A stretch of 64,000 bases of DNA, from assembly GCF_963676685.1 (NCBI RefSeq), contig NC_092348.1, positions 81,034,001 through 81,098,000 of the forward strand, written 5' to 3'. Below, in pieces: positions 1,398 through 49,463 of this stretch (positions within the stretch are counted from its first letter, which is position 1; every line of letters begins with the position of its first letter). Made by a program: the position numbers and the translations under genes. This DNA comes from Mytilus edulis (Eukaryota). Under the pieces are notes generated by a model. That model was not told the DNA's origin, did not search any database, and worked only from the letters and a program-made list of their open reading frames with translations.

Positions 1398-1591
1398 TTA
1401 GGCAATAGCCTGAGCTACTTTCTCTCGCTGTGTGATGGTGAACTTCTCATAGCATGTTATAACTCGGTTTCTCTGCTCTAGTTGTTTGAGCTCAAAATGT
1501 TCGGCTACTGTAGTTAACTGTGGGTTGTATAGACATCCTGCCATTAGTGATTCCGATCCTTCATCACCTACGTATATCACAAACACATCAG
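1398..1591 (-). CDS. Gene A last coding exon (ADVFVIYVGDEGS...LYNPQL...AQAIA*)
   Basis: Acceptor ATTTCAG. 194 nt long, the same length and phase as the last exon of gene B, with shared motifs. Confidence 0.88.
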
Positions 1592-7500: not shown

Positions 7501-10500
7501 GTATAACTCAATTCTAACATAACTACCATATTTTGCATCTAAAAACTTCACAAGTTTATGGTAGAATCCTTTATTTCTGGAGCTTAATGCAGTAGTTGTC
7601 ATTAATTTTCTGAATGTTTTTTATTTGATGGCGACCAATATGTCCCGTCTGTCTTATATACCTATATGGAGCTATTTTCTTTCAGAACGACAGGTCATTC
7701 TTTTTCAGAATCAACCCGGACGATACCAAGTTTCAATTAAATATGTTCAAAGGCATAAAATAATGACCTGTGTGAGGTCATTATTTTCCTTGATAAAAAT
7801 GCAATTTATAATTTACTTCAAAATTTTATTCGTCTGATAGTTTTTTGTTGCCGATTTGGAAATGTATTTTTTAAAGTTCAATCGATGATAGATGTATTTT
7901 AATTTTAGAAACAAATAACATGAAGTTTTGTTACTTGTTAATTTATCGATACAATAAAGAAAAACCTTAAAATATGCATTATCTATAACATAACTGCATT
8001 CCGGTCCCATTTCACGACGATGCCAATTTAAGAGCGGAATATGCCTACCCTAAGGGCACACAGGAGATCAGGCTATTTAAAGTGAGGCCCGTTTAGCACT
8101 GTCTTTAGATTTCAATGTTGTAATTTGTGTACTTTTGTTTCTCTGTTGAGCATTTTCTTCTTTTATTCATGACGTTGTCAGTTTATTTTTTTGACTAATT
8201 AGTTCGTATGTACCTTTGTTTTGGGGTCAAAAAGAAAAATCTTACTGTACAAAATTAATCCTTGATTCTTCAAAGTTCAGTTTAGCCATAATTAAAAGGA
8301 GTATATAACAGCAATAGAGAGACATAAACACTAGAATAAAACTGTTAAGATTTCAGGCGGAATTTATACTGTTGAGATAGTGTTAAGACATATTTAAGAC
8401 TCAGGAATGGGTCAAGACATATTCAGACATTATTTAGAATGTCAAGAATATGTCAAGACTGATCGAGACAAATTTAAGACAGTCAAGAATTGATCGAGAC
8501 TGATCCATACTCTTATAAGATAATACAGGAAGTGTCGAGAAATATTTAGACAATGTTCATACTGTCAAGACACTGGTCAACAAAATCAAGAACCTTATTA
8601 GACAAATTCATACCATATCAAGATTTGTTTTTAAATTATTCAGACAAATTAAGAATGTCGAGCAAAAATACATTCAAATTCAGACAAAAACTGGTCTTTT
8701 CAGACTTTTTGACTTTTGTAGTGCAAGCTTCAGTAACCATGTAACCTCAAGTTTCCAAAATATTTTACAGAAGCACCAAATTTAAAACATGAGGGCTCTT
8801 TAAACTACCCAAGATATATGTTTATGACCTAGAAATGTTTTACTGCAATGAGATGAAAGAATTAGGTACCTTCAACTGTCAAATTCAAGGGAATATTGTT
8901 TTAGACCTTGTTTCGTATGTAACAGGATGTGACGTACTATGATTTGGTGGTATTACACCTAAAATGTCTTTGCAAAACTTCATATTTTAATTCTCTCTAA
9001 CTGACATACGCATCAAAATGTCGGACAGTATATCTATTATACGATATATGATGGTACGCCCTAATGAACATTCTATCACGATAAAACCTACCTCCCATTT
9101 TACGGCAGGCCTGTACGGTTAATAATTTAATATCTTCTTCATCTTCACCTGGGGTCTCTAAAATAACATCTTTCTGGTTGTGGTCAACAAACACCAATAT
9201 AACTTTACAGTGAGGTATTTTCAACACACTTTTATCGTTGGTGACCACGAAATCTGCTTCGTCCATTTTTTTAATCCTCAGTCGACCCTCAACACTTGGT
9301 CTGGTGATTCTTCTATGTTTATTGTGTGTTTCTTGACTGAAACTTATAACACAGAACTTGTTTTCCAGTTCTTCTGGTTGTCTTCTCTTTATTTGTTCAA
9401 CAATACTTAGGGACTCCTGAAAATGATATTTTTGACTATTATGGCTCTTAGCTTGAAAAGTCTAGCTTCTGATTTGATACCATAAGAATGGGTCGTAATG
9501 GGGGTACCTTCGAATAAGGATAAAAATTATTTGCAAAATGAAGTTAACGTTAATTTTGGTGAATGACGATAAAATATACACTTTCTTTTCTTTTTTCGTG
9601 TTAGACGAATGATGTTATTTTTTTCCGAACATACTGGTAACGATAATCATTTGACACTGAAATTAAAGGGTTAAAGTTATAATTCCCTTATAATCAGAAT
9701 CAGGGCCAAATGATAGATCGGACAAAGTTTAATCACAATTGGCCCAGTGGTTTTACAATAGAAAGTTATATATAATTTTTGCATTAAAAAGACAAAACAT
9801 GCAGGCCTATTGAAATAAAAGACTGTTGGCAGGAGAGGCAAAATGATATACAAAAATGAACATTTTAGTAAGACGTCAATTACCACTGAACTAGTACACC
9901 TGTTTGTTTAGGGGCCAGCTGAAGCACGCCTTACGGTTGCAGGATTTTCGAGCTATATTGATCAATACCTTTTGGTGGTCTTCGGCGGTTTTCTACTCTT
10001 TGGTCGGGTTGTTGTCACTTTGAAACATTACATTCTCAATTTTAACCTTGCATAATACGCATATCTGATCCATCCCCATCCACATTCAATCATTCAAATA
10101 TGAAATACATTGTGACATATATCAATTCTCTTGGTACAGCAAGGCCAGCTGCATTTGGCTTACATTCGTCTGTTATCATTTTTGCACAATTCAGCGGATG
10201 TTATTCTTCTCATGGGCGCATCCAGAACTTTTCATAGGGGACCTAAATGAACCAATTCCAGTCATGCTTCAGTGATTCTCTGTATGATCAACCAAAAATC
10301 CCCCCCCCCCGAAATTTACCTTTGCTTCTTATTAGAAAAAAATAAAGTGTACTTACATACTGCAAAGATGGCTTATCCTTGTTTTCTGTTAGATATCTTA
10401 TTTTCTTTTCAATATCATCAATTTTGTGCTTTCTGCTATATAACAGACCCCCACATATTGACAAAACAGTGATAACAAAAGCAACAGTTGTTCTCTGTAC

Positions 10501-13019
10501 CAGTACCCATTTGTCTTCTATATCTAAAACAAAGTGTACCCATAAATCAAAATTCACATTTGTATGAACTATCATGAAAGACGTTATACTACTAATTTTA
10601 ACATACTGCAAGGGTTGTTTATCCTTGTTTTCTGTCTATTCCATGTCCTTCTGTTATAAAACTGATTACCCTGTACGGTGAAAACAACCAGAACAAAAAC
10701 AACAGTCATTTTCTGTACCAGTAACAATTTTTCTCCGATATTTAATAAAAAAGATACGATGTAAATAATTTCGAATTAAATCTTCTGCATTGTTAAACAG
10801 ACACAACATTATAACTTATTCATATATTTGTTTTGAAACTTCTCTTTCACCGGGTTGAAGGCAAATAAAGGTAACAGTATCCCGTTTTTCAAAAGTCAAT
10901 AATTGATTCAGAGAAAGCAAATCCGGGTAACAAACTGAATCCGAAGGAAACATATCAACTATTAATGTAAGAGGAAAACAACGAAACAACAGAAACACTG
11001 AGGTGCAAAAAACATCGACAATGCGACATACATAGAAACGAACTATTAGATGAAAACTACTATATTCTTGACTTGGTACAGGACAATTAAAGAAAATTGG
11101 TGGGTTAAACCTTGTATGTGGCTAGCCGAACCTCGGGCTTTATGACAATGTTAAATATCCGCTAACTTGACAACATTACATGACAGGAACACAGTACAAA
11201 TAAATGCAAAAAAAAATCAGGACAGAGAAATACAAAAGTAAATAATATAATAGTACATTTCGACATGTTAACCACAGAATTACAAACAATACCATAAATA
11301 ATTACGGACAGTACACAAAACCAGCATAATATAATTACGAACTATGCAAAATCCTCCTCTCAAATGAATAGTAAATTAGGTGAATTCAAACATACATGCG
11401 ACTTAGAATTACGGTACTTACCTGTACTCAGAATTTCTGTAGTTTTGTTTAACATGTGTAATCTGTCGGGTATTTTTGTGATCTCTTCACCATGGGTTTT
11501 TACTTCTTTTATTACAGAACCGACTGATTGATCTGTTTTATCTAATTTCACTCCTATTTTCAATATTTCTTTATGTTGTACAGTTTCCACTAATACCTTT
11601 AAGTTGGCTGACATCATACATTCTGTACTTAAGCGAGCATCAATGGTAGAAACATTCTGATAAATTGTTTTCACATCTTTTTTAATCATTTTATAAAAAC
11701 TGTTTACGTTTGCATCATTATCAAAAACATAATTTTGAGTAAAGTTTTTTAACTGAATCAATTCTTTATAGTTATCGTGCATCTTTTGACTAAACCTGTT
11801 GTTTTCTTGTTGTAAAAATGATGAATCTTTGTTAAATTTTTTCATCTGCATATTCACATTTCTAAGTCTTTCAGTATTGCCATTGAGATCATCTTTTAAA
11901 GTGAGACATTGTTCAATAGATATTTTTACTGTATTCATTTCTTCTTTAATTGTCCCAATAATAATATCTTGATCTGTTATCACAGTTTCTAGCTTTTTAA
12001 CCACGCTATCTAACTCAGACTTTTTCTTGCTCAACACTTCTTTCATTTTTGTTTCAAAATCAATTCCTATTGATCCAACCGACAGAATAAGTTCACTTAT
12101 TTTTTTACTGGCAACTGTCATTCTTTCTTCATTTCTTTTAATTCTTTTTATCGATACTGTACAACTTTCTGTCTTCCTTACAAGATTAGAAATTTTTACA
12201 TTGGATTCTGTCTCTAACTGATTTACTTTTGCAAGCAAACTTTGAGTTCTGGACTGTAAAGTTGCAACTTTTGTATACAATGATAAATTGAAAATAAGGA
12301 TCCCCAATATTCTGAAATGAAACAAATGATTGTGTAAGTATGCTTGCAGGAAAAAAATTAAATCACAAAAATACTGAAATTCGAAAAAAATTCAAAACGG
12401 ACATAAAAAAGTCCCTAATCAAATGGCAAACTCAAAAGCCCAATCACATCACACTAATGGATAACAACTATCAGATTTCTCACTTGGTACAGGCATTTTC
12501 TTATGTAGAAAAATGTGGATTGAACCTTGTTTTATACCTAGCTAAAGCTCCCACTTGTATGATAGTCACCATACTCGCGTTTTATTTAAACCACTACAAA
12601 GGAAAACCCTTGTTAAAACAAAATATCAAAAGTTTGCTTCCGTTCTAAATCTCAACATTGTGTTACATTTTGGTGGTGTGTTTCTATTGTGTCATAGTTC
12701 TCCTCTTATAATTGATGTGTTTTCCTCAGTTTTAGTTTGTAACCCAGATTTGGTTTTTTTTTTCTCAATCGATTGATGAATTTCGAACAGCGGTATACTA
12801 CTGTTTCCTTTATTTTCGAATGAAATCTGAAGAACATCTTTTTTTTCACAGATATCTTTCACTAATAGTTGTCACCCTTATTTTTAACTTCCTTATGCAA
12901 ATTATATGTTTTTTGATTAACAATCTGTACGAAATAATAAAACAAAAATATATATACCCCAACAACAGAATTATTAATAAAGACAGTTGTCTGTAAACAT
13001 AATGATTCTCTGAGGTCAT
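1398..13019 (-). CDS. Gene A (5 coding exons: 13019-12958, 12311-11422, 10523-10357, 9416-9092, 1591-1398), 545 aa: TM1 - coiled coil - TM2 - cytosolic alpha/beta (TIR/SEFIR-like) domain protein
   Basis: All introns are GT-AG. Exon lengths 62+890+167+325+194=1638 nt splice in frame to a single stop. The intron phases match paralog B and the C-terminal domains align without gaps. The start codon is less certain. Confidence 0.85.
2100..2900 (-). mobile_element. Penelope-like retroelement RT remnant (degenerate)
   Basis: FLINNIFVTFEGRVFQQTVSIPMGTNCAP and FRYIDNVLSLNN motifs. Upstream TKPLSKLLTSFLSAIK is also PLE-RT-like. Confidence 0.75.
3430..3720 (+). mobile_element. Decayed retrozyme, left part (hammerhead at ~3531-3574; GAAA mutated to GAGG)
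   Basis: Homologous to the 354-bp unit and interrupted at 3720 by a TIR element. Confidence 0.75.
3721..7238. mobile_element. Non-autonomous TIR DNA transposon, PIF/Harbinger-like (~180-bp imperfect TIRs, 3-bp ATT TSD)
   Basis: Left end AGACATGTTCACCATAAGCCG...(CCGAAA)n...GAGTATTACTTCAATTCA, with its inverted counterpart at 7064-7238. ATT at 3718-3720 and 7239-7241. Confidence 0.72.
4807..6538 (+). mobile_element. Helentron/HINE-like non-autonomous element with internal ~502-bp tandem repeats
   Basis: CCCTATGTTCTATT..GCCATGGCGGCCATCTTGG recurs at ~5324, 5827 and 6329. It ends in a (GAC/GGAC)n microsatellite followed by GAGCTAAAAA. Confidence 0.65.
7242..7490 (+). mobile_element. Decayed retrozyme, right part (degenerate hammerhead at ~7405-7447)
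   Basis: Continues the unit from the point where it was interrupted at 3720. Confidence 0.72.
8329..8723. mobile_element. Possible CACTA-type MITE with internal TCAAGAC-like subrepeats
   Basis: CACTA at 8329, TAGTG at 8719-8723 and many (GT)CAAGAC units. The TSD is not clean. Confidence 0.4.
9092..9416 (-). CDS. Gene A coding exon 4: N-terminal part of the cytosolic alpha/beta domain (ENKFCVISFSQET...VILVFVDHNQKDVILETPG...TVQACRKMG)
   Basis: Acceptor TTTTCAG and donor G|GTAGGT. Clearly homologous to 28301-28619. Confidence 0.88.
10357..10523 (-). CDS. Gene A coding exon 3: TM2 (TTVAFVITVLSICGGLLY) followed by basic SRKHK
   Basis: Acceptor TTTGTTTTAG and donor TAT|GTAAGT. Phase 1 in and phase 0 out, exactly as needed to join exons 2 and 4. 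Confidence 0.82.
10603..10745 (-). pseudogene. Degenerate tandem duplicate (pseudo-exon) of gene A TM2 exon
   Basis: Shares TACTGGTACAGA..ACTGTTG.TTTTGTT and ACAGAAAACAAGGATAA....TTGCAGTATGT with exon 3. It has an internal deletion and has lost the acceptor AG. Confidence 0.75.
11422..12311 (-). CDS. Gene A coding exon 2: end of TM1 plus ~285-aa coiled coil
   Basis: Lies within ORF 11360..12325. Acceptor TTTCATTTCAG and donor G|GTAAGT. K/E-rich heptad-like sequence. Confidence 0.88.
12958..13019 (-). CDS. Gene A coding exon 1: MTSENHYVYRQLSLLIILLLG (short tail plus first half of TM1)
   Basis: ATG at 13019 and donor GG|GTATAT in phase 2. It joins ILGILIFNLSLY of the next exon to give one continuous hydrophobic helix. 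An acceptor-like TTTTATTTTAG lies near 13134. Confidence 0.7.
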
Positions 13020-18100: not shown

Positions 18101-21100
18101 GCGTCTGGCGCACCAAATGATACTTTTTATTGTTTTTGATAAATTCGTGTGACGCTCAGTTTGTTATTCTATTATGTTGTTTTTTTGTACTAACGTTAAT
18201 TATTTATAGGTGTTCGTTGTTATTTTGTGGTTAACATGTGAAAATGTACTATTACAATATTTAGCAATGTATTTCTTTGTCATGAGTGTTCTTGTATTCA
18301 ATTTGTATTGTATTCCTGTAATTTAATATTGTCATTTAGCGCGGGGTTTGGCTAGCCATAAAACCAAGTTCAACACACCATTTATTTTTAAATTTCCTGC
18401 ACTAAGTCAGGAACATGATAGTTGTTATCGATAAGTTTGTTTCTATGTATGTTTAATTGGCGTTTGTTTTTGTTGCATCCATGCACATATCCTCTTATAG
18501 TTGATGTGTTTCCCTCTGTTTTAGTTTGTAACCCAAATTTGTTTTCTCTCAATCGATTCATGACTTTTGAACAGCGATATACTACTGTTGCCTTTATTTA
18601 TATCTACTTTACCGATGACACTGCTGATGGACATTTCTTCCTCTAGACTATCATAGTTGACATGTACTCTAGTGTTCCTTGCAAAATCATCGAGACGTAC
18701 TTTTTATATAATTTTGTTGTGTATATAAAATATTGAATGTTTGGAAACACTAATATTTTCTACACCTTTTCCCACATTGTTTTACACTTAGCTTGTAAAG
18801 CCCAACGTTTAAAAAATGTTCGATATTTTCGTGGTCTTTTTAGCCTTTAAAATGCCTTAATGCTAGAGCCACTTTTAGTTTTTATGCAGAAAAAACGTTC
18901 ATTTGAATTAAATATTTAAAAGCCCTGCATCATAAATGAGTTTTTATTTTGAAAAATATTATTTCAATTTCTTCAATATTAAGACTCCTTTTATGTACAG
19001 ATTCTTACATCTCCCAATCAAAATAATGTATACATGCACATTTGATAATATAGCCACATAAACTATGCGGCACTTGATTGTTATTTTATTTTGGTAGGGT
19101 TGTTGTCTGTTTGATACGTTTCCTGTTTCCATTCTCAATTTTAAATAGAGTTACCAGGTAATCAAAGTAAAATAGCACTAGCTACTCATTATATAAATCT
19201 TTAGAATATAGTCACTTTATGTATATAGTGTTGTCCGGTATGATACTGTTCTTCGAGTATATTCATGTTGATCTGATATTTTCACGAATATATGATGTTC
19301 ATATTTTTTGGTAAGACGTGGTACACAAAAGTAACAAAGGAAATGCATGCATATAATATGTATATCCCTAGATTTAGACGTTGAAATTACCAATACTATT
19401 GCATAAATAAGATAAATTTTAAAATGAACTAATTTTTATATGACAAGGTTTTTGTCAAAAGCAGTCCAGGTTTTTCGAGTATTGTAAATGTTATATAGAG
19501 GGATAAAACAGAAGTTGTATGTGTTAAAATGTTGTCTTTAAAAGTATATTACGGTTTGAAAATACTAAACAAGTTCAAAGACATTAAACACGTTTGTTTA
19601 TGCTGTAGTATCATATTGTATAAACATACATCTAGCTAATGTAGTGTAACGAAATAGGGGTCCCTTGAAATGGAACTTGTTTCCCTAAAATTGTGTGATG
19701 ATGTTGTTGAAACCTTACCGTTAATTGACTGTTCCTATTATATATTTCTTGTGTAACTATGTTTGTTACTTTTTATTATTCTTGTCTATGCTTTTACAAT
19801 CGTAACACTTCTGAATTGTTTACTTTAAATGACGTACAGCACAATGACGTCATAACCTATTTTTTGTTATAACGTCAGCTCTGGATTTGGTAATTTAGGT
19901 GAATGGTAAGCCAAAATGGTAAAAGGTAAACCAAATCGGTAGATTGGTTTACCTAAGTATAAATACGGCGGAGAAAACTGATAAGACTTCAGTACGACTT
20001 TACCCTGGGACAGTAAAACACGCTAATTCCAAGCGATTTAAATATACATGTACCGAAACCGATTACCAGCCGAAGTAGTAACCAGACTATTTCCATATAA
20101 TGTGGGCTTGTTAGTTCCTTAACAAGTTGCATTTAGAGAATAACTTCTCGAGAGAAACATTATCATTTGACATTGAATTTGATTTACCATTTGCCGATTA
20201 CCAGACTTTAGTTTGTAAACTTTCGGGGTATATTTATAATCCGCTATCCATTTTCTTTAATTCACGATATTCTAAGGTTTATAAAGTATTTATTTGTTAG
20301 ACTAGAATAATGCTGAGAGATATACTATTTGTATGAATTGTTGATATTTAATGCATCTTAAAGTAAATATAAGTTGATTTTTATTTAACGAGTCTGTTAT
20401 TCTTACAAAAACCTTAATGGAACCAAACTAAAATATACATGGATACCACAAAGTACCACAAAAACTTATACAGAACCATCCTCAGATCTACAAGAATATC
20501 ACAGAGTACCACGCTACCAGAGTACCACGCTACCAAAGAAGGGTCGCTAGTTATAACTATAGTTCATATATATACTTATACATTGTTATAAAACACATTA
20601 TTATAGCAACACACTAAGGGTTATACATTTATAGTTTAATACCAAAGCCTGACCGCTCGGTTTTCGTTATAGTGGTAGCAGTGGAGGCACGTACCTGCAT
20701 TTTTATATTCTTACAATAAGTTTAATAATATTTAAGATAAGGCATCAATAAATATAAGAAGAATAGATAGTGCGGTAAATAAATTTAAAACACCTAGGTT
20801 TACTGCCCAGGGTAGACCAGTGCTCCCCAGATCTCGGTCCTGTGAAATATTCCATGATCTGACGACGACCGGAGAGATAAGCATAAGAGTGAACCAAGAT
20901 CAATGGCCCGCACAAGAGAATACAGATAGATACAAAAAGGATGGTATATATCATACTGACAAAAAGCCATTGCCAGGAGGTCTATCACCATCAACGAAAG
21001 TCATTGACCAAGTGAAAAATAAGGAAGTTTCAAATAGGGCAGTGGTTGTGCATTTGGAAACAAATGCGTCGTGGCCGGTAAAACAGAATCTTGGTGAAGA

Positions 21101-21479
21101 GTCAAGCGCTTTTTATAACCATGCTACCAGGTCTAGGTATGTGTATCAGAGTCAGAAAACAGAGGGTTCTACTATAGCAGAGGGTACTGATGAGGCAAAG
21201 GGTTCTGCTGAGGGAGTTTCTGGGAATACAAGACGGGTCCCGACGTCTTGTGAATCCAGATGGGATTCGGGAAATTAACCTAGGCCTTTGGACCGGGGCT
21301 TACTGCATAATATGGGGAAACGTACCAAGCATTACCTTTGACGTCCCGCGGACGATTTAGAGTTGGGGTTAACGGGACCGACCATAAACACCGTACTGAT
21401 GAAATGACCAGTAATTTTAATTATTCTGGTATTATAAATAAACCAAATGTTGCGCGTGATTAAGAAATAAACTTACAAA

Positions 21480-22400
21480 ATACAAACTGCTACAAAAAGA
21501 AACCAAGACTTTATGATTGGGAGGGTAAAGGGGAAGACTATTTAGTTCAGTTTGAATTAATTGCAGCAATTAATCAATGGTCTGACCTAGAGAAAGCTTT
21601 AGAATTAGCTACTAGCTTAAGAGGTACCGCCCAAAGTATTTTAACCAATTTAAGACCAGAGATGCGGACCAATTTGTACAACTGACTGCTGCTTTAACAT
21701 GACGTTTTCAACCAGAAAACATAGCAGAAATGTACAGGGCGCAAATTAAAAGTAAAATACGCGGACGCACGGAACAAATACCTGTATTAGGCCAAGACAT
21801 AAAACGTCAAGTAATATTAGCGTATCCATCAGCTCCAATGGCGGGTAACAAAGAACTTTCAGCCAGTGATTGTTTTATTGATTCCCTTCATGATGCCGAC
21901 ATGGAATGGGCTATTTTCCAGTCCAAAGCAAAAAATATTGATAACGCGTAAATGAATATGATAATAGGGAAATGTATTTGTCTGAACAAGTCGATGACAT
22001 TTCAGGTCGTCTTTCAAAAATGCCGTATAACAGAACTAACAACTTTAATCCAAGAAAGTGACAGGCCAAATGACTTGTCGGGGATTCTATAATTAGCTGA
22101 AACTGAGTACTAAATTTTAGCTGAGACTAATTATGATTTGGAACACACCAATCATTTTGTAAAATTGAGTCAGATACATATATTCTGATAGTTTATATAT
22201 CATTGTTAATGTTTTTGACATGAAATTAATTAAGTTGATTGATACCAAGTCCATTGTTAGTGTTTTTTGTTTGTTATTCATCCATGAATAATACCATGTC
22301 CAAGATTGTGAAGACAGTGTTAACCAATGCACGTAGTGGTTTACCCCTGGCTAAAGGAAACTTAGTTATGCCGATGGGGACTGCTGTATTACCAACGCAG
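21480..22400 (+). pseudogene. Degenerate gag (PKTYD...DYLVQFELIAAINQWSDLEKALELATSLRGTAQSIL; MYRAQIKSKIRGRTEQIPVLGQDIKRQVILAYP) and protease remnant (LIDTKS)
   Basis: Gypsy gag-like motifs interrupted by stops and frameshifts, located inside the LTR element. Confidence 0.75.
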
Positions 22401-23741: not shown

Positions 23742-23968
23742 TCTATAAAAACGACCAACCAGCAAATTTACTATGTACCGGATCGTCTAGAATAGGCGAT
23801 ACTATGCAGATAAGGAAAAAATTATATCAGTCTAAAGATTTGCACAACGGTACTGATATAAGATGTTATAATACGAAAATGTTGTTATTTAACAACATTT
23901 TCGTATTATAACATCTTATATCAGTACCGTTGTGCAAATCTTTAGACTGATATATATATATATATATA
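23705..23968. repeat. Insertion in the 3' LTR: (TA)n-flanked segment ending in a perfect ~65-bp-arm palindrome (23823-23954)
   Basis: Absent from the 5' LTR at the equivalent GGGGTATA..TCCGCTATCC site. Confidence 0.85.
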
Positions 23969-25751: not shown

Positions 25752-26740
25752 TTCTCTTATGGTTGGGGCCTGTTATCTAACTCCCACGTGAATAGATATT
25801 TTTCGTATCACACCGTACGGAGTGTGATATGAAAAAGTGATATCAAAATTACGTTAATTTGATTGGCTTATCTTGTAAATTTCCAATATTTTCATTGGCC
25901 GTTGATCAGGTCATTATTCAATGGAAAAGGTCATGACGGGACTACTTTTTTTCTTGACAACTGATTGTTTACTTCCGGTTTTCGCGATTTTCGTCTGCTT
26001 TATCGTCTGCATTATCTAATATAAATCTTATTATGGACGAAGAAATAAAGAAAGGAACCCGTGAACGGTTATGTAACGGAGCAAAGGGCATTATAACTGG
26101 CACAACTTCCAATTTCAATTTCCCTCTGTATGCGACAGTAAAACTACCGATGGACGTCCGCAAAGCTTCAAATACAATACAGTTATCTCTATTCTAATGC
26201 AACACAAGTTCATAATTAAATTTCAGTGTAAAATCTTCATTTAAGAAAACTCCGCGAAAAGATGTTATCTTCTTTGGTCCCTACACTACGTGACGTCATA
26301 GGTATGCTTCCGGTGTCATACATAAACACCGGGCATTTTCTGGCTTCTGTGCCGCTTCAGAATGTAATAAAATTTGATAAAAAGAAGATTTTAAGGCGCA
26401 ACAAGTGAGTTATTTGTTAATTATTGTAGAAATAACGTGTCAATACACTTGTTACAAACTAGATAACAAGCCCCAACCATAAGAGAAAGATCAGTACGCG
26501 TTGCAAAGAAAAACGGCCGTAGCAACACAACTCGCAACAAATAGGCCACGCACATACAACTTTTTGCCATAAGAGAAATAGGTTTAACAACTTGTGAGAA
26601 TTAGATATCGCTTGATATCAACTCTCGTTATTTAATTTCAATAATAATAAACTCGCCATAGGCTCGTTTATTATTATTGAAATTAAATAACTCGAGTTGA
26701 TATCAATCGATATCTAATTCTCACTCGTTATGAAACCTAT
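25752..26740. mobile_element. Hairpin-ended element(s): 28-bp inverted repeats (25752-25779 / 26460-26487), small hairpin at ~25798-25835, ~80-bp-arm terminal hairpin at 26578-26740
   Basis: The inverted repeats can be read directly from the sequence. The body shares motifs with 14650-14890. Confidence 0.6.
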
Positions 26741-27002
26741 AAATATCATATTTACAATGGAAGTTGTACATTATTAGTATTCACGCATCAACTGAAATTA
26801 AAACTCACTACATCAAAATACTGCATGACGTTAGAAAAACCCAACAAAAATTCATGGTAAGAGTTTGTTATCTGATGATCCCTCACCGTTTAAATAAAGT
26901 AAAAGTAAAAGAAAAAAAAACAACATCCAGTTGCCTAAAATATTAAGGATAAGAAAATGAAGTGTCAACACATGTCAATGATAATTTAACAAAGAATAAA
27001 GT

Positions 27003-27130
27003 CTCATGATATTGCACGGACAATATATTCTTTTTGTGAAATGTTAAATGTTTTATATACACTGATATACACTCATATACACTGAAACATCTCTGGTTGT
27101 TTTCCAATCTCTGAAAGACATGATAATTGT
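27003..27130 (-). repeat. Tandem duplicate of the 3' part of gene B last exon, in the 3' UTR
   Basis: Closely resembles ~27132-27240, with two extra 10-bp ATATACACTG/C units. Confidence 0.75.
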
Positions 27131-27131
27131 C

Positions 27132-27325
27132 TTATGATATTGAACGGACAATAGATTCTTTTTGTGTGTTGTTAAATGTTTCATATACACTGAAACATCT
27201 CTGGTTGCTTTCCAGTCCCCTTAAGACCTGATGACTTGTAAAAGCGGACAATTCCTGGTTATACAAATTACCCGGAACTAACTGATTTGATCCTCTGTCC
27301 CTCACATATGTCACAAATACATCAG
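27132..27325 (-). CDS. Gene B last coding exon (ADVFVTYVRDRGS...LYNQEL...VRSIS*)
   Basis: Acceptor TGTTACAG. 194 nt long and homologous to 1398-1591. Confidence 0.88.
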
Positions 27326-30300
27326 CTGTAACATAAATATTAGATAAGTTTTTGATGCATAAAACTTACTGTTAAACATATAAAACAAGAATGTGTCCAT
27401 AGTACACGGATGCCCCACTCGCACTACCATTTTCTATGTTTAGTGGACCGTGATATTGGGGGTAAAACTCTAATTTAGAATTTAAATTAGGAAGATCATA
27501 TCATAGGGGACCATAGGGGAAGTTAACCTGAAGCGGGACAGACGGACGAACGGACGCACAGACCAGAAAACATAATGCCCCTCTACTATCGTAGGTGGGG
27601 CATAAAAAAACTTTCTAATCAAAATAACTCAGGAAGTTAATCGTCTTAGTCAACAATAAAATGAGAACTGACCTCACATCAATGTTGTGTTGCACAGTGG
27701 AGGCGCCAAAACACAATATGATGTCTGCGGCAGCGACTGTTATTATGTATGGCAAGAGGTCACCTAAGAATGAGCTAAACGGTATTGTAATGATTCTTTG
27801 TCATGTACGTGCACAGAGTTTAACTCTTTATGTATCAAAACAATTTACTAAGACGACGGTCCATTAAAAAGTGCAACAAATGATTACAGGACTGATTAAT
27901 GTGATCTGTATTATCGATGACGTGGGAAGGCATCTTGGTGTAGCATTATAGCTTCGATTGCTGGAAATAATGGGTTCGGATCCAGCCAGGATCCAACCTA
28001 GACATTAAAGGATTCAGCGAAAAAAATAGTGGGCTCGAAATAAATTGGCGTGGTAGGGTGGCATGTTTTCCTGCGAGCTGTATAACAATATGGCAGCTGT
28101 TATCAATAATTCGTTCCTATATATGTTGGCGTTTGTTTTTGTAGCTGTTCAGTGTTTCTTGTGTTTCGTTGTTTTCCTCTTACACTTGATGTGTTTTGTT
28201 TTTTGACAAAGATTAGTCTCAGTTAAATTGATTTATAACTATCGAACAGCGGTATACTACTATTGCCTGTATGTACAATTGTTTTATGTAAAAGACTTAC
28301 CACCAAGTTTCTGAGCAGCTTGTACAGTCACAAGCTTCTTATCGCCTAAGTCCTGTCCAGGATTCTCTAAGATCACATTGCGCTCATTGAAGTCGACAAA
28401 TACAAAGATGTATCTTGCACCTGGAATATTTAGGATATCTTCATGTCTCCTGACCAGATGCTGAATGATTTCTATGTTTCCTCCTCTATTCTTTGTTGCT
28501 AGAGCCGACTTTACCAATTGTTTGTGCAAATTCATAGTTTCAGAGTAAAAACTCAATACACATACTTTGTTATCAAAGACCGGAACTCTTTGGATCCTAT
28601 CCAGTATACTAGGAGCCCTCTAAAATAGTAGCGAAAAACTCCATTCAAACAGTTTAAATATGTTAATACTATTAAGTAAAAGAGGAACGAAAGATACCAG
28701 AGGGACAGTCAAACTCATAAATTGAAAATAAACTGACAACGCCATGACTGAAACTAAAAAGACAAACTGAAGACACAACATTGAAAACTAAACACTAAGC
28801 AACACAAACCCCACCAAAAACTTGGGGTGAAATCAGGTGCTCCGGAAGGGTAAGTTTATCCTGCTCCAAGTGAGTACACATGCTAGATAAGACACAATGC
28901 CGTTATGAGTTTTCTTATTTTCATTTTGTAAATGAAAATAAATCTGAAATTTGATCCTGCTTTCATAGGGAATCGTTTCGTTCACTCAAAAACACATTCG
29001 TACCATACACGTTCACAACTTGGGTCCGTTAAACTCTGGGTTTTTTTGGTGATTAAAAGATTGATTATCAATAATGTTTTATATAAGATTATTTTTAATT
29101 GGTATTCTCAAAGCTTATTTGATATTAGTGTAATGTGTTTGGTGTAAAGTAAAATACTAAAGTTAGCGTGTAGGAGAAAAAACAATGAGGAATGTTCATG
29201 AAAAAATGAAAATTAACAGTTTGTTACTAATTTGATAGTCGTTTAAAAAATTAATCAGTTAAAAAAAACTTTAAAAAGGGTGCAAACGTGTGAAGTGCGA
29301 CGCGACCCCCTGCAAAGGCGAAAGAGAAGGTGAATCAACCAATTCGTTTCAATTTGCTAAATCAATTCTTTCCAACAGTGTTAAACCATTTGGACTATTA
29401 AAACAACCTTATTACTTTTAAATCTACTGTATATACATGTATGTGTACATGGAAAACATTCGTAAATATAAATCGAAATGCAGACATCTTATACGTTCAG
29501 GTATTTCACATTCAATTTTTTATGGTAATATGTTTTACAAAGCACAAGAATGTCGGCAACAGACTTATTTGAAACAAGGGATATAGTTACGATACTGTTG
29601 TCAGGCTATAAAAGATGGCATATTTGGCTTTATATTGATTCACTTATATGGCCAATTTTTGGCATGATACAGGTTATTTTCTTCTTATATATTTTATGAT
29701 GGTAGGATATTAAACTCCTGACAGGAGAGATTGTGCTTGGTATTTATATGATGAAGACATATTTTTTCAATCAGTTGAATTGAGATCAGGAGCTGGCATG
29801 TCAGTAACGTTTAGTAGTCCTTTTTTGATTTATGTATCATTGTCATTTTGTTTAGTTTCTTTTGTTACCTCATCTGACAGCACACTCAGTCTTCTTTTAA
29901 ATAGAATTGGCTAGATGTATTGAGGTAGGTTTGAGATCTAAAAAAAACCATATTAACTACGCCGCATTTTTGCGCCTGTTCCAAGTCAAGAGTCGCTGGC
30001 CTTATTTGTCTCGTGTGATTTTTAGATTTAGTTTCTTTTATATATTTCGGAGATGAGTATGACGTCCATTATCAATGAACACATTTGTGTTTAGGGGCCA
30101 GCTGCAGAAAGACTCAGGGTGTGAGATTTTCTCGTTGTCTTGAATACACATAGGCTGTTTTCCGCTCTTTGATCGGGTTGTTGTATCTTTGACAAATCCC
30201 CCATTTCCAATCCGAAATCTTATATAAAATAAATATGAGTAATAATTAAACATGTATTTCTTTTGTTAATACTGTATATGATAGCATCTATCTTAGCAAA

Positions 30301-33300: not shown

Positions 33301-36300
33301 GCTTAGGGCCATTTCGGTATTGAGGCGAGGTTGTTGGACACATTTTCAAAACTATTTACCAAAATAATGATTGATGTTAAGTGGAATATTAAAACAAGTA
33401 TGCTTAACATCTTTTTTACAATGATAGTTTTAAAGTTTGATATCCTATATTGAAAAGTAAATCAAGTCAAGTTTTAAAAAAAATGATTGCTTAATTTTGC
33501 AATTAAGATTATAACGTATCATATAAGGAATCGTATTCCAGATACAATCTAAACAATAACGGTTTACAAATTGCATATAAATATTGTTTAGATTAATCCC
33601 GAATTTAAGTCCAACTACAAACATCCTAAATCGTGAATGCTTACTGCAAAACAAAAAATATTATATTTAAATTATGTTAAATATTTCACAGCCGAATCGA
33701 TTTAAAACGTGGAGACACGGATGCAGGCCTCATTTGTATTGTTCAGAGACCTGACTCTGTAATCTTATCATTGATTTTATTTGCAGATTATCAAATTTTA
33801 AGATATAAAAGCATCTGTGACGATTCATGCCAACTTCATAATACCCATTTATATTTACTTATTAAAAAAGTTGCATAGTTGCTAAAAAAAACTACATACC
33901 CGTATTTTGTGATTGCAGATTCCTAACTTGGATATCAAGTTCCCTGACTTTGGGACCCGTGTATTCTTCAAATAATTTCATTTTATTAACATCTTTGCTG
34001 AGGGAATCCACATTACTTTTAAAATGTCCAAGCTTCCCGTTGTAATCGTCTACTTTGGTAACCATGCTTCCTATTTTAACTTCTGTTTTGGAAATGTCAG
34101 TATTTAATTCACTTGTCTTCTCTAAAATTTTACCTTTCGATGTTTCTAAATCTTCTGATAATTTCGTCAATCTATGTGTTAAGTTGTCGTCAGTCTTTGA
34201 TATGTGTTGTTTGAGCTTTGTTATATCTTCATTAGACAGCTTTACTTGCTCTTCAATATTTGTCTGTTGTTCCACAGCAGAAGAAACTGCATTACTTACA
34301 CTTTCTGATGATTCCTTCAAATCTTTTAATCTCGACTCAGTATTATTTACTTCCATTTCTAAATCACGAAGTTGAACTTTATTATCCTCAAGGCTCCTTT
34401 GCATTAGAGGTAAAAGCTGATAACTGCTCCTAATCAAGGTAGCAGATTTGTTCATATTTTCTAAAGTAGGCAAATGTTTATTAATTTCATTAATTACTGT
34501 ATGTACTTCAGAGACAGATGTGTTGACATATTCAGCTTTATCACTTGCTTTGTTTAGCAAAACATTAAGACTTGTTTGATTTTGAAATGCTATTTCAAGT
34601 TTTTTCTTAATATCGGTCGTTTCATTGTTCATTGAGTCGATAGTTTTTGAGAAGTTTGAAATATCATTATCTGCCCTGGCAAGGGTTTTAGTAATTTCAA
34701 TAAATGTTTGCTGCTGTTGTGGTAAATCGACTTCCAGTTTACTACTGATCCCCTCTGTTAACTTTATTCTCATTTCTACGTTTTTCAAGGTATCGTTTGT
34801 TGTAGTCATCTTACTTTGCAAAATAACGACATGTGTATCAATATGTACTAATCGTTCCTCTAGTTTCAATAAATCGACATCTAAAATTGGCACTTTTTCG
34901 GAAAGTGTCTTCACTTTTTTCAAATATTCTTCATATTTCATCAACACTGCAAATTTATTTTCGATCTCGTATTGAGCTCGAATTATGTATACTGCCACAG
35001 CCATTGTAAACACTACAGCAGGTCTGAAAAGTGGATTGGTAAAATATATCGCAAACAATTCTTATATTTCAAAACCATTTAAAAGTCCCTTTGTAAACTC
35101 AAGTTAAGGCAAACGATCAAACAGCAGTGTAATATTATTTTTCTTGAGACAACTATTTAATTTGAATTTTCAATTTGGGATTGCAAAATACTATCCATGT
35201 GCGTGTGTGGATTGTTATTTTGATACCTACTATAAACATGCAGAAAAAATAAAACCGAATATACATTGCAAGCACAACTACAAGAACTAAAATATGAACA
35301 GAATTTAATGAGAAAAATTAAAACAAAGATTTGTTCATATTAAGTGAGCACATATCGACATATAATTATACGAAACAAATTACACAAACAGCTGCTTTGT
35401 GTTGTCTCGTACTTGTAATAATCAAGGTGCTCTGTGTTTAAGACTTCACTCAATATGACTCTATATATGTCACTATGCAGTTGCTTTGGGTTTTGCAAAG
35501 TATTTACAGGTGTTTTCTATGAAAAACTCATTAATTTAAAATATATTTATACCTTAAACATTTGATACATTTAAAGTTTAAATAAAGGCAAAACTAGTAT
35601 ATCGCTGTTTAAAAGGAAAATCAAGTCGTTAATATTCACAGAAATAAATACATATTGTCTGCACGCATATTATCACAACAAATTCAGTTAAAATGCTGTT
35701 CTTACATTCTACATATGGTTAATTGATGACGAAAATTGATAAGTATTGTTTGTGAAAGCCTTATGAAGCATTTGTCCTTTTTATCAAATGGATATCATAT
35801 ATTGCACAGTTGCGGCAAATATATAATAATATATCACACCTTTATGCGATTGCTTGTGCGACCAGTAACAGTGGTATCATTAATGGCATATCCACTGATA
35901 TGTCATCCCTAAGCAACGTTGGTACAATGTTAAAATAATGATGACTGGTATAGTTGCAGTGTACAGTATATCGTATGAGAGAAGTTTTCACAATAGAACA
36001 AAATACGAGGCTACGTCAGTTTAATGCTTTTCAAGTTTAAATAATTCAAAATGCAAAAGAAGTATTTAGATTTAGTCATAATTCGATTAAGCAAACCAAA
36101 TCCAGGTAACAAGTCATATTTTGACTATTGTATTTATTGTGTCTGTTTATTTAACGCATCAATGTAAAAATATCGGAAATTGATGAGACTGTCATTAAAG
36201 TGAGAGAGTTAGCGCTATAGAAACAGGTTAAATCCACCATTTTCTACATTTGAAAATGCCTGTACCAAGTCAGGAATATGACAGTTTTTGTCCATTCGTT

Positions 36301-39300: not shown

Positions 39301-41746
39301 TAGAGCAATTCACTATGCTGTTGAATATTAATCCTCTCAAAAAAATGTTTGAAGAAATTTTCTTTTTTATTTATGAAATTTCAAATGAGAAAAATTGAAC
39401 CCAATTTTTTTAATCACATCCCCCTTTCCCTTATTCCAAAACTAATCTCAATTAAAATTTCTAATGGAGTTTGCAACAATAACTACTCATTTAAATACAT
39501 CATAAAATATTAAGATGTAAAAAAACTGCTTGTTATCACTGAATGGTAAAGATTATTTTAATTTATCAGTTGGTAGTAAAAAGTGAATATACATTGTATA
39601 TTGTATATAACAAAGATTTAAGTTGATTCTGGACAAAGAAAGATAACTCCAATTAAAAAAAAATATTGCTATTGCACAATATTTTGCAATTAGATATTTC
39701 TTGCTTACTATTCTGGACAAAGAAAGATAACTCTAAGTAAAAAAAAATTTGCTATTTCACAATATTGTGCAATTAGATATTTCTTGCCATTGCGCAATAC
39801 TGTGCAATTGAAAAGACTTGCTATTGCACAATACTTAATATAATAATTTTAGATCCTGATTTGGACCAACTTGAAAACTGGGCCCATAATAAAAAATCTA
39901 AGTACATTTTTGGATTCAGCATATCAAAGAACCCCAAGATTTCAATTTTTGTTAAAATCAGACTAAGTTTAATTTTGGACCCTTTGGACTTTAGTGTAGA
40001 CCAATTTGAAAACAGGACCAAAAATGAAGAATCTACATACACAGTTAGATTTGGTATATCAAAGAACCCCATTTATTCAATTTTTGATGAAATCAAACAA
40101 AGTTTAATTTTGGACCCCGATTTGGACCAACTTGAAAACTGGGCCAATAATCAAGAATCTAAGTATATTTTTAGATTCAGCATATCAAAGAACCTAACTG
40201 ATTCATTTTTTGTCAAAATCAAACTAAGTTTAATTTTGGACCCTTTGGACCTTAATGTAGACCAATTTGAAAACTGGACCAAAAGTTAAGAATCTACATA
40301 CACAGTCATGACAGTTAGATTCGGCATATCAAAGAATCCCAATTATTCAATTTTGATGAAATCAAACAAAGTTTAATTTTGGACCCTTTGGGCCCCTTAT
40401 TCTGTTGGGACCAAAACTCCCAAAATCAATACCAACCTTCCTTTTATGGTCATAAACCTTGTGTTTAAATTTCATAGATTTCTATTTACTTATACTAACG
40501 TTATGGTTGGTAAACCAAGAAAAATGCTTATTTGGGTCCCTTTTTGGCCCCTAATTCCTAAACTGTTGGGACCTAAACTCCCAAAAGCAATACCAACCTT
40601 CCTTTTGTAGTCATTAACATTGTGTTTAAATTTCATTGATTTCTATTCACTTAAACTAAAGTTATTGTGCGAAAACCAAGAAAATGCTTATTTGGGCCCT
40701 TTTTGGCCCCTAATTCCTAAAATGTTGGGACCAAAACTCCCAAAATCAATCCCAACCTTCCTTTTGTGGTCATAAACCTTGTGTTAAAATTTCATAGATT
40801 TCCATTCACTTTTACTAAAGTTAGAGTGCGAAAACTAAAAGTATTCGGACGACGACGACGACGCAGACGACGACGCCAACGTGATAGCAATATACGACGA
40901 AATTTTTTTCAAATTTTGCGGTCGTATTAAACGGATTACAAGAATGTAAGATAATTAAATTAAGATTTAGAATATTGATATAGTTCCCAATGAACGAGAA
41001 CACATATTATGACGTCTTTGTATAGGTTAATTTGCGTTTTGAGATTAAGAAGAATTGGTGGTACACATTTATAATTATTCGCTAACTATTTAATTTTTAC
41101 TTTAAAACAAATTAATTAAGTTTTATTCTGGAACCGAAAATAATAGTCCCATGTTTATCGTACATCAGTAGCAATGCGATTTCATAAATCATCTGAGATT
41201 TAAAACAACATTCTTACTTTCAACCTGATAAAGGGTTTACATTAACATAACACATGACAATCTAGCTAACGAAACTGCTATTTCAGTGAAAGAACAGAAC
41301 ACTAACTACAAGTATATCTTACTGTATCGTGATAACAAAGTTTGGAAATAGTGTAATCTAAATAGTGATGTAGAGTTTCAAGAAATAATACACTTAAATA
41401 TAATAACTGAATTAAGCTCGTCAAATTTTATCTAAATAAATAACATTTCTACAAATTAAACTTACATGGACAATTTAAAGGTAAATACGTCTGATGCTCG
41501 GCCCAAACTCTGTTCTTTTCGATCTTTTGATGACGTCTGTAAAACAGTTGGACTGTTTTCTTCATTATCAGAGAACTCATGATTTGGGTCTGGGTCGTTT
41601 GTTGAAGAATATATTGGTGTATTGCGCTGATTAGGTTCTGTGTCGTTTGTTGAAGAAGAAATTGTTTTATTGCGCTGATTTGTTTCTGGGTCCTTTATTG
41701 TAGGATGTTTAGTTTTACCTTTTCTTTCTTCTTTCGGGGATGCCAT
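27132..41746 (-). CDS. Gene B (5 coding exons: 41746-41466, 35023-33900, 32290-32136, 28619-28301, 27325-27132), 690 aa; paralog of gene A with the same architecture
   Basis: GT-AG introns. Exon lengths 281+1124+155+319+194=2073 nt give an uninterrupted ORF with phases 2,1,0,1. Confidence 0.87.
27384..27605 (+). mobile_element. Short HINE/Helentron-like element
   Basis: AACAAGAATGTGTCC start, (GACG/GACA)n microsatellite and terminal ATGCCCC...GGGGCAT hairpin followed by an A-tract. Confidence 0.6.
28301..28619 (-). CDS. Gene B coding exon 4: alpha/beta domain part 1 (DNKVCVLSFYSET...YIFVFVDFNERNVILENPG...TVQAAQKLG)
   Basis: Acceptor TATTTTAG and donor G|GTAAGT. Homologous to 9092-9416. Confidence 0.88.
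31612..31840 (+). repeat. Dispersed interspersed repeat (other copies at ~10860-11200 +, 12480-12813 -, 18340-18600 -, 28130-28270 -)
   Basis: Shared AAATAAAGGCAACAGTAGTATACCGCTGTTC end. Confidence 0.65.
32136..32290 (-). CDS. Gene B coding exon 3: TM2 (GLFQPINVCVALAFMLIGALFYMTYYRY...)
   Basis: Absent from the ORF track and found by hand. Acceptor TTTCATTGTAG and donor CAG|GTAATT. Open frame, phase 1 in and phase 0 out. Confidence 0.82.
33104..33406. repeat. Tandem repeat, 3 x 101 bp, near-identical
   Basis: The unit GGGCC(G/A)TTTCGGTATTGAGGCGAGG...CAAGTATGCTTA occurs at ~33104, 33205 and 33306. Confidence 0.9.
33900..35023 (-). CDS. Gene B coding exon 2: TM1 (IPAVVFTMAVAVYII) plus ~355-aa coiled coil with 8 N-X-S/T sequons
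   Basis: ORF 33892..35058. Acceptor CTTTTCAG and donor G|GTATGT. Confidence 0.9.
35655..36010 (+). repeat. Local duplication: uninterrupted copy of the sequence at 36430-36472 plus 37393-37710
   Basis: Shared CAACAAATTCAGTTAAAAT, CATATATTGCACAGTT, CTAAGCAACGTTGGTACAATGT and ATAGAACAAAATACGA. Confidence 0.75.
36604..36647 (+). ncRNA. Type I hammerhead ribozyme, copy 1 (predicted cleavage after C36641)
   Basis: CUGAUGA, GAAA and GUC core. Stem I GCGUCA/UGGCGU, stem II GUCU/AGAC, palindromic stem III ACGCGCGU. Confidence 0.88.
36958..37001 (+). ncRNA. Type I hammerhead ribozyme, copy 2 (predicted cleavage after C36995)
   Basis: Same core as copy 1. The stem I 3' strand reads UGGCAU (one change). 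Confidence 0.85.
37312..37355 (+). ncRNA. Type I hammerhead ribozyme, copy 3 (predicted cleavage after C37349)
   Basis: Identical to copy 1. Confidence 0.88.
39108..40930 (+). mobile_element. HINE/Helentron-like element with internal tandem arrays
   Basis: Subterminal TATACGACCGCA at the 5' end is matched by a 3' TGCGGTCGTAT hairpin. It also has a (GAC)n microsatellite and internal repeats of TTTTGGACCC/GACCAA.TTGAAAAC. Confidence 0.7.
41466..41746 (-). CDS. Gene B coding exon 1: low-complexity hydrophilic N-terminal tail (MASPKEERKGK...) with a 16-aa internal repeat
   Basis: ORF 41462..41746 with good ATG context (AAAATGG). Donor AT|GTAAG in phase 2. An acceptor TTTTTGCAG lies just upstream. 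Confidence 0.75.
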
Positions 41747-47299: not shown

Positions 47300-49463
47300 C
47301 TCAAAATTGAAAAAACTGATAAATAAGAAAAACAAATTTTATAAAAAGAAAAAACATGATAGCAAACATACTAAAAAATTTAAACAAATTAAAACACAAT
47401 TACAGAAAGAGATGAGAAATGCCTATTGGAATTATATCGAAAACATGATTTTTGACATTGAAATACAAGAGCCTGAAAATTCGAGATTTAACAAACAACC
47501 TTAAAAACTCTTTTCATACATAAAAGGCCAAAACAATGAAAACACTGGTATTGCACCTCTTAGGAGTGAAGGTCTACTTCATACAGATCCCTTGAAAAAA
47601 GCTAACATATTAAATGAACAATTTAAATCAGCTTTTACATCTGAGACCAATACAGTTATCCCTGACAAAGGTCCATCAACACATCCAATAATGGACGACA
47701 AAGACATCAACAGAGAAGGCATCTATAAATTAATTAAAAATATAAACCCAAAAAAGGCAACAGGACCTGATAACATCACTGGAATAGTGCTTAAAGAAAA
47801 CATCAACACATGCACAGACATACTCACTCTAATTTTTACAAAATCAATGCAAACAGGAAAAGTACCTCACGATTGGAACCACGCAAATGTAACACCTGTT
47901 TTCAAAAAAGGAGACAAACATCATCCTGGTAACTATCGTCCAATTTCACTTACATGTATTTCATGCAAATTACTAGAGCACATAATTGCAAGCAACATTA
48001 TGAAACACCTTGAATCTAACAACATACTTTATGACTTGCAACACGGCTTCAGGGCAAATAGATCATGCGAATCCCAAATAATATCACTAATTCACCAACT
48101 ATGTTCAAATAACGACAAAAATATACAAACCGATCTTATCATCATGGATTTCGCAAAAGCCTTTGACAAAGTTCCACACAACCGTTTACTATATAAACTT
48201 AAATTTTTCGGTGTATCAGATCAAGCCGCAAACTGGATAAAATCTTTCCTTTCAAACCGTACACAAACAGTTATGCTAGAAAACCATTCCTCTGATAACT
48301 TACCAGTTACATCAGGTGTTCCTCAGGGCACTGTATTAGGTCCAATACTATTTTTGATATATATCAATGACTTACCTGACTACTTACATCATAGTCAAAT
48401 CTGGCTCTTTGCTGACGATAGCATCATTTACCGACAAATAAAATCACCATCAGATTGCCTTAAACTCCAGGAAGACCTAGAAGGAGCAATCAAATGGAAA
48501 CAAGACTGGCTAATGCAGTTTCACCCTGATAAATGCAACATACTTAGAGTGACCACAAAGAAAACACCTATCCATTTTTATTACAACATGCACGGTCACA
48601 TTATTGAGTCAGTTGAAAATGCAAAATATTTAGGTATAACTATTTCATCAAATTTAAAATGGAACAAACACATTCAGAACATGACATCTAAAGCAAATAA
48701 GACCCTTGGATTCATCAGAAGAAACTTAAAAATAAACTCAGTAACCATCAAAGACCGAGCATACCAAGCCCTTATTAGACCAAAACTTGAATACTGCTGC
48801 ACTGTCTGGGACCCCTACACAACAGAGAACATTAACTCCATAGAAAAAGTTCAAAGACGTGCAGCGAGATATGTATGCTCAAACTACAAATATACTGAAA
48901 GTGTAACAAACATGATTAACACACTCCACTGGCCAACATTACAAGAAAGGAGACTCAAAAGCAGATTAAATATGTTCCATAGAATAACAAACAACAAAAT
49001 TGCCATACCACATACTGACATATTAATTAAAAGCCAATCAAACACCAGGTCTAGCCACGAACAAACATACCGACAAATTCGATGCAGCAAAGACAGTTAC
49101 AAATTTTCATTTTTCTGCCAAACTATAAAAGACTGGAACAAATTACCAGAACCAATAGCCTGCAGCACCACTACTGAGTGCTTCAAGGAGAAACTCACTA
49201 GAGAGATGCTCCTTGACACTTACAAACACCTACATGTATAATATGTATCTTGTTTTTATCTTATACCAAAAATTAAAAATAAAAATTGAAAAATATTACT
49301 TACATATACATTTGTATCATAAAAATTGAAAAATTATTTAGAAACCAAAAATATATATTTTTAATCATTAACAATATTATCAAACCAGACATGCGCCGGA
49401 AAGTAATCATCAACCAGTTGATGTTTTTCTGTATATAAAGAAGAAGAAGATGAAGAAGAAGAT
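47300..49463 (+). mobile_element. 5'-truncated non-LTR retrotransposon (CR1-group LINE) with (GAA)n tail
   Basis: RT motifs NYRPISLT, QHGFR, DFAKAFDKVPH, SGVPQGTVLGP, FADD and KYLG. In-frame stop at 47502-47504. GAAGAAGAAGAT tail at 49440-49463. Confidence 0.9.
47592..49241 (+). CDS. Reverse transcriptase part of LINE ORF2 (no endonuclease; probably non-functional)
   Basis: 549-aa ORF with the full non-LTR RT motif set. It starts at a non-ATG codon downstream of a stop. Confidence 0.8.
   Translation: MKKANILNEQFKSAFTSETNTVIPDKGPSTHPIMDDKDINREGIYKLIKNINPKKATGPDNITGIVLKENINTCTDILTLIFTKSMQTGKVPHDWNHANVTPVFKKGDKHHPGNYRPISLTCISCKLLEHIIASNIMKHLESNNILYDLQHGFRANRSCESQIISLIHQLCSNNDKNIQTDLIIMDFAKAFDKVPHNRLLYKLKFFGVSDQAANWIKSFLSNRTQTVMLENHSSDNLPVTSGVPQGTVLGPILFLIYINDLPDYLHHSQIWLFADDSIIYRQIKSPSDCLKLQEDLEGAIKWKQDWLMQFHPDKCNILRVTTKKTPIHFYYNMHGHIIESVENAKYLGITISSNLKWNKHIQNMTSKANKTLGFIRRNLKINSVTIKDRAYQALIRPKLEYCCTVWDPYTTENINSIEKVQRRAARYVCSNYKYTESVTNMINTLHWPTLQERRLKSRLNMFHRITNNKIAIPHTDILIKSQSNTRSSHEQTYRQIRCSKDSYKFSFFCQTIKDWNKLPEPIACSTTTECFKEKLTREMLLDTYKHLHV

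Follow-up and report, generated by a model that had tools for sequence, protein, structure and literature searches.

Two mussel genes from an undescribed mollusc-wide membrane-protein family share a conserved C-terminal domain of predicted flavodoxin-like fold

We analyzed a 64,000-nucleotide stretch of the Mytilus edulis genome (NC_092348.1, positions 81,034,001 to 81,098,000; hereafter the window, numbered from its first letter), which contains two genes, A and B, whose products end in a shared domain. Both are intact, spliced mussel genes. The five exons of gene B encode 690 amino acids, identical to a database protein (P0003, a Mytilus edulis model), and gene A, which runs from 13019 to 1398 on the minus strand, encodes 545 or 543 amino acids according to the splice donor chosen. 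In each gene, the intron that interrupts the domain was spliced out in four of four sequencing runs, of which only X24 is recorded as RNA, the others being presumed RNA, and to which alleles or paralogues may contribute. One 1,802-base contig traces all five exons of gene A or of a close relative. The features of the two genes, with membrane helices and domain elements as predicted and in residue numbers of the domain model where loops are named, are as follows.

41466..41746, minus strand: gene B exon 1, encoding a polar N-terminal tail and the beginning of membrane helix 1
33900..35023, minus strand: gene B exon 2, remainder of membrane helix 1, then a coiled-coil ectodomain of ~360 residues
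32136..32290, minus strand: gene B exon 3, second membrane helix (~residues 474-492) and linker
28301..28619, minus strand: gene B exon 4, end of the linker, then strands 1-3, helices A-C and the acidic loop, which make up the first half of the domain; both splice joints found in 4/4 runs
28341..28394, minus strand: gene B, terminal Asp of strand 3 and loop 75-91, with the Glu of an Ile-Leu-Glu ("ILE") motif at 28365-28367
28308..28340, minus strand: gene B helix C, with a Thr (28326-28328) in the inferred place of the catalytic Glu of TIR domains
27326..28300, minus strand: gene B intron within the domain, 975 bases, phase 1, GT-AG, directly after helix C, at a position also used by paralogues
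27132..27325, minus strand: gene B exon 5, strands 4-5, helices D-E, an invariant Gln (27162-27164) and the stop
12958..13019, minus strand: gene A first coding exon, with two possible in-frame donors (12958 or 12964)
11422..12311, minus strand: gene A coiled-coil ectodomain exon
10357..10523, minus strand: gene A second membrane-helix exon
9092..9416, minus strand: gene A domain exon 1
1398..1591, minus strand: gene A domain exon 2 and stop, downstream of a 7.5-kb intron

Two partial duplications adjoin these exons. Just past the gene B stop, in what is likely the 3' untranslated region, lies a decayed tandem copy (27001-27124) that matches the last exon's 3' end at 73% identity; in gene A, the end of the membrane-helix exon is repeated ~250 bases upstream (10598-10635), within the preceding intron.

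An earlier note on this DNA, made from the letters alone, had described a C-terminal domain over which A and B align without gaps, joined to ectodomains with no obvious similarity. Both observations hold. From a conserved Asn-Lys to the stop, 154 residues align gaplessly with 65 identities (42%), against a maximum of 22 in 10,000 shuffles, and a two-residue gap sits just upstream. The best BLAST alignment of the ectodomains scored 17.7 bits, with shuffled sequences averaging 16.6 and reaching 30.0.

The two genes belong to a large, undescribed, mollusc-wide family of membrane proteins, whose shared domain does not qualify as an established TIR or NADase. A profile built from 11 domains matched 223 clusters (50% identity clusters, E <= 0.001), the best 150 of which formed our survey; among 30 clusters looked up, 25 were named, comprising 24 molluscs and one brachiopod (Lingula). 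The molluscan members range from Solemya to oysters and clams among bivalves and include several snails, and a homologue search with a diverse alignment returned 18 proteins, all of whose organism-named entries were molluscs. Database names for members are either uncharacterised or, because of the coiled coil, myosin, kinesin or titin. Searches of the domain against Pfam, PADLOC, NCBIfam and PDB sequences gave nothing consistent and no family that covers it; a match to PAE2307 was set aside as not significant (E 0.11-0.21) and spanning only ~60 residues. One pattern scan of genome contigs, a weak test, confirmed no prokaryotic relative among 197 pattern matches. We found no description of the family in the literature searched; supplementary tables and subscription journals, which may list the genes, lay outside its scope.

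The family has expanded in tandem. At least seven loci occur in the M. edulis genome: a head-to-tail run of four at C5:80.92-81.08 Mb, a pair at C5:77.05-77.09 Mb and a single divergent locus on contig C10. The intron that follows helix C appears to be common to all seven. In M. galloprovincialis, six closely numbered loci on one chromosome carry the domain, from which we infer that array size varies. Between the intact genes on C5 lie broken extra copies of ectodomain exons (80988429-80989321 and 81016881-81018678), a possible trace of ectodomain shuffling via unequal crossing-over. For the domain tree and the counts below, we used 63 non-redundant full-length domains (<70% identity) drawn from 116. 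The tree contains a cross-mollusc clade of eight bivalve and snail sequences (support 100/100) that lacks the acidic loop; the strand-3 Asp and loop 75-91 are conserved across the expanded subfamilies and absent from one clade. The C10 locus (83409922-83412509) is a divergent member of the clade without the acidic loop and may represent an ancestral low-copy form, its bivalve and snail relatives sharing a short, conserved ectodomain.

Family members have a fixed architecture. The domain forms the C-terminal end of the protein in 62 of the 63, and it starts a median of 32 residues past the last hydrophobic helix. Among 56 non-redundant members of at least 250 residues, two hydrophobic helices precede the domain in 36, one in 19 and none in one. 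The inter-helix loop spans 62-710 residues, and in 27 of the 36 its heptad signal exceeds that of every shuffle; in gene B the ectodomain carries eight N-glycosylation sequons, no Cys and no globular module. Sequons are enriched in the inter-helix loop (150 vs 85 expected) and not in the linker and domain (50 vs 56 expected), and basic residues are found preferentially on the outer flanks of both membrane helices. These two features place the loop likely outside the cell and the domain likely inside, a predicted topology of an extracellular coiled coil and a cytoplasmic C-terminal domain. A mid-loop excess of proline, as sought for a hairpin ectodomain, was not found.

Constraint differs between the two parts of the protein. 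Relative to three relatives, the domain of gene B is 81-89% identical and its ectodomain 21-22%; the domains of gene A and of the copy at 80.92 Mb differ by 23 synonymous and 2 non-synonymous changes. In three pairs, the ratio of non-synonymous to synonymous substitution rates (dN/dS) was 0.019-0.23 for domains, the lowest value coming from two A-type domains, and 0.63-0.73 for ectodomains, whose alignments were local and possibly imperfect. These substitution patterns indicate purifying selection, with strong constraint, on the domain and weak constraint on the ectodomain.

Models of the 168-residue domain built from 11 and 65 sequences agree, with predicted local distance difference test (pLDDT) scores of 84.7 and 94.7. 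The deeper one has strands at residues 16-21, 48-53, 68-74, 106-112 and 148-151 and helices at 24-39, 57-62, 92-102, 137-144 and 157-167, so that the strand-helix alternation read from the letters in the earlier note recurs in the predicted structure. Two long loops (75-91 and 113-136) are ordered and conserved, the former with block pLDDT of 92-98 in the deeper model. The models support a five-strand flavodoxin-like core with flanking helices, and the matches to the RRS1 TIR and receiver domains suggest strand order 21345. A fold search over 48,161 representative chains ranked EngA (9.4), IF2-like G domains (9.4), the RRS1 TIR (9.3) and IRGQ (9.1) highest, and receiver domains scored 8.4; rescoring of Foldseek candidates gave 10.2 for a processome G domain and 9.6 for the RRS1 TIR. 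Top matches had 5-16% identity and root-mean-square deviations >3, and the RRS1 TIR and receiver domains matched the domain from end to end. By E-value, Foldseek placed flavodoxins and a glycoside hydrolase domain best (template-modelling (TM) score ~0.4-0.5), with nucleoside 2-deoxyribosyltransferases at ranks 11 and 13. This fold comparison, which had been proposed along with the TIR assignment, upholds the flavodoxin-like class; it leaves TIR tied with G domains, and the deoxyribosyltransferases reach a TM score of only 0.39. None of the matches listed in the PDB fold searches bore a SEFIR title, though SEFIR is not excluded by this, and a viral fold library returned only weak matches (best TM <0.5). 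The domain is thus predicted to adopt a TIR-like or G-domain-like fold.

The note's reading of the domain as TIR or SEFIR therefore survives in part: the alpha/beta fold is flavodoxin-like and one of the best structural matches is a plant TIR, whereas membership of either family does not follow, since G domains of GTPases tie with or outscore the TIR and the domain matches neither a TIR nor a SEFIR profile. No TIR family, whether TIR or TIR_2, was among the 5 families matched by the 11 domains or the 14 matched by 26 members (E up to 10); TIR_2 has 150 matches in the same genome, none in the window. SEFIR (PF08357) was likewise absent from the families matched by the 11 domains and 26 members, and its 7 genome matches lie on other contigs. 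We also compared the domain by HHalign with 14 TIR, 7 SEFIR and 13 Ras sequences from the M. edulis genome. TIR reached a probability of 0.07-0.3%, with a score below shuffles, and SEFIR an E-value of 0.13-0.15 with a score of 14.7 against a shuffle maximum of 19.8; both tests have low power, as the positive control of TIR against SEFIR also failed (0.69%).

In several features the domain differs from both families. The closest solved TIR chain, that of Arabidopsis RRS1 (4c6s, 4c6t), comes from the domain class of Toll-like and IL-1 receptors, which carry leucine-rich repeat or immunoglobulin ectodomains; the A/B family has a coiled coil, often twice anchored, and two long conserved loops (75-91 and 113-136) that set it apart from TIR. 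Asp-Phe-x-x-Gly after strand 2 is near-invariant in the 14 mussel TIRs and not conserved in the A/B domain family, in whose model only three residues, without this motif, connect strand 2 to helix B in place of a BB loop. With SEFIR, found in IL-17 receptors and Act1, the domain shares its position at a receptor tail, and the helix-A His of the family (43/63, with Tyr in 10/63) aligns with a His invariant in 7/7 mussel SEFIRs, in an alignment that is not significant; the A/B family lacks the fibronectin type III ectodomain.

The proposed NADase activity, for which the note had pointed to the Glu of the ILE motif, is weakened by the position of that residue. Glu83 lies in loop 75-91, before helix C; it is kept in 54/63 members and missing in 9/63, including the whole cross-mollusc clade. 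The helix-C Glu is invariant in 14/14 mussel TIRs and absent from helix C of gene B (92-102), and the family column in register with it, as inferred from distance to strand 4 and not from superposition, holds Thr in 52, Ala in 4, Ser in 3, Phe in 3 and Cys in 1. TIR NADases require this Glu, and RRS1 lacks it (PMC7282519). A pocket of another kind is still conceivable in the family. Nor are the residues shared by A and B, which had been called invariant, so across the family: only Gln159 (model numbering) is invariant in the 63 members.

GTPase motifs are lacking as well. The G1 (P-loop) and G4 motifs of GTPases, GxxxxGK[ST] and [NT]KxD, which are also seen in our Ras alignment, occur in 0/63 and 1/63 members, respectively. 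TRAFAC G domains and pseudo-GTPases (EngA 2dyk, IRGQ 8q6q, CENP-M 4wau and SSU-processome chain SI) have six strands, against five in the A/B domain, which differs further in being joined to a membrane helix and ectodomain. Receiver (CheY-like) domains combine an Asp after strand 3 with an acidic pair after strand 1 and a Lys after strand 5; the family shares Asp or Glu after strand 3 (61/63), lacks the conserved acidic pair and Lys, and is ~45 residues longer. By sequence, then, the domain lacks the canonical motifs of both TIR NADases and GTPases. Separately, contigs C1, C2, C6 and C9 carry numerous Ras-family genes that lack introns, form tandem clusters and have frames of 250-420 residues, an apparent mussel expansion.

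Look-alikes in other animals emerged from language-model features of two members, at scores of 0.81-0.90 that, below 0.9, we treat only as leads. They comprise unnamed chordate, echinoderm and cnidarian clusters together with chordate clusters bearing DUF4630 (PF15443), the nearest named clusters (0.86 for one member; 0.87 and 0.81 for the other). The likeness is one of model features, not of alignment or E-value, and PF15443 covers 18-43% of the members of those clusters; it gave no hidden Markov model match in the M. edulis genome or among the 11 domains and 26 members. We take the DUF4630 family to be linked to C2orf72.

Since the catalytic signatures of TIR and GTPase are lacking, the domain is better read as a signalling scaffold than as an NAD-cutting enzyme. 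Our tentatively preferred reading is that the domain, likely cytoplasmic, serves as a docking scaffold without catalytic activity and relays a signal into the cell once the variable coiled-coil ectodomain has been bound or drawn into clusters. The coiled-coil ectodomains would oligomerise, their binding or clustering would bring the tails together, and the clustered tails would recruit a conserved cytoplasmic partner, by analogy with the tails of TLR and IL-17 receptors. Immunity or non-self recognition is the likeliest setting, judged solely by the evolutionary pattern. Several findings weigh against the scaffold. An acidic residue follows strand 3 in 61/63 members and strand 4 in 56/63, Ser or Thr stands at strand 5 in 63/63, His or Tyr in helix A in 53/63, and Glu in the loop in 54/63; such conserved polar residues at strand ends, the usual ligand site of these folds, would suit a pocket and a docking surface equally, and together with the invariant Gln159 they speak against a purely passive surface. 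An ectodomain dN/dS below 1 indicates relaxed constraint and not positive selection, and no recognisable ligand-binding module was found in the ectodomain by family library searches, one of which covered the top 25 of its 354 matching families, almost all of the coiled-coil type. None of the low-powered profile comparisons (TIR, SEFIR and Ras) reached significance, and structure does not single out TIR, given that G domains score equally or higher.

The same polar residues could instead belong to an enzyme of non-canonical type, or to a sensor of small molecules, similar in kind to TIR or nucleoside deoxyribosyltransferases and switched on by clustering, with a pocket formed by the strand-3 Asp, the loop Glu and the helix-A His. 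The conserved strand ends, the well-ordered loop, the very low dN/dS between the two A-type domains and the deoxyribosyltransferases among the Foldseek matches, modest as their TM score is, are in keeping with this, and counting from strand 3 we place the loop Glu ~two residues short of the TIR Glu. Yet that Glu would come from the loop and not from a helix C that has none, the residue is missing from the members noted above, and the fold searches put no enzyme family above others; we consider an enzyme or sensor unlikely. We give no more credence to descent from a P-loop GTPase through loss of both the P-loop and the hairpin strand, leaving a pseudo-GTPase (as in the IRGQ N-terminal domain or CENP-M) that serves as a membrane-trafficking or autophagy adaptor and is kin to the chordate DUF4630 proteins. 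Pseudo-GTPases that bind no nucleotide do exist (PMC5593906), but TIR and receiver matches fall within ~1 Z unit and are effectively tied, G domains are numerous in the fold library, the structural matches have an identity of only 5-15%, and the profile scored below shuffles against the 13 Ras-family sequences (12.9 vs a maximum of 20.9); the DUF4630 link is a lead from language-model scores, with PF15443 unmatched in the genome.

Less probable still are structural tethers or adhesion rods, in which a doubly anchored coiled coil holds membranes, particles or neighbouring cells and the tail does no more than link to the cortex or to endocytosis. Tetherin is the model of a coiled coil anchored at both ends, and the two membrane helices flanking a heptad-rich loop in 36/56 longer members, the spacer-like range of loop lengths and the gene B ectodomain, free of Cys and of globular modules, would suit such a role. 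Double anchoring is not universal, however, as 19/56 members have a single detected helix and in 8/36 the first helix lies <=12 residues from the start, like a signal peptide, though some may be partial models; the constraint on the tail also far exceeds what a passive anchor needs. A broader proposal, which we regard as improbable, is that the domain represents a so far unrecognised receptor signalling module found across animals beside TIR and SEFIR, shared with unstudied cnidarian, echinoderm and chordate proteins (including those with DUF4630), that molluscs expanded into arrays of coiled-coil receptors, and that clustering activates either an acidic pocket of non-canonical type or an adaptor dedicated to the sensing of non-self or pathogens.

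The surrounding DNA holds several further features. Upstream of gene B, a 578-residue open frame (47505-49241) resembles a LINE (long interspersed nuclear element) reverse transcriptase, and the broken frames between genes A and B (20736-21948) resemble a Gypsy-type gag region. Diverged units of ~170 bases form a tandem array at 51621-54250 that closes with an inverted block, and near-perfect palindromes of 132 and 163 bases lie at 23823-23954 and 26578-26740. Outside the window, two open frames just past the 3' end of the gene array (C5:80900986-80906661) appear to be RING-finger, TRIM-like frames.

Returning to the docking-scaffold reading, the fold of the domain is a common one, and it is the signalling function that we propose. 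Its mechanism is directly testable, as the 168-residue domain folds confidently and candidate residues can be named. The family bears the marks of a receptor family: a constant inner domain, a variable outer part and tandem arrays. Bivalve immune repertoires have been catalogued via Pfam domains, and the A/B family is invisible to such catalogues. If the proposed signalling role is true, these proteins would constitute a new receptor class for mollusc biology and offer a handle on the unstudied look-alikes in other animals.
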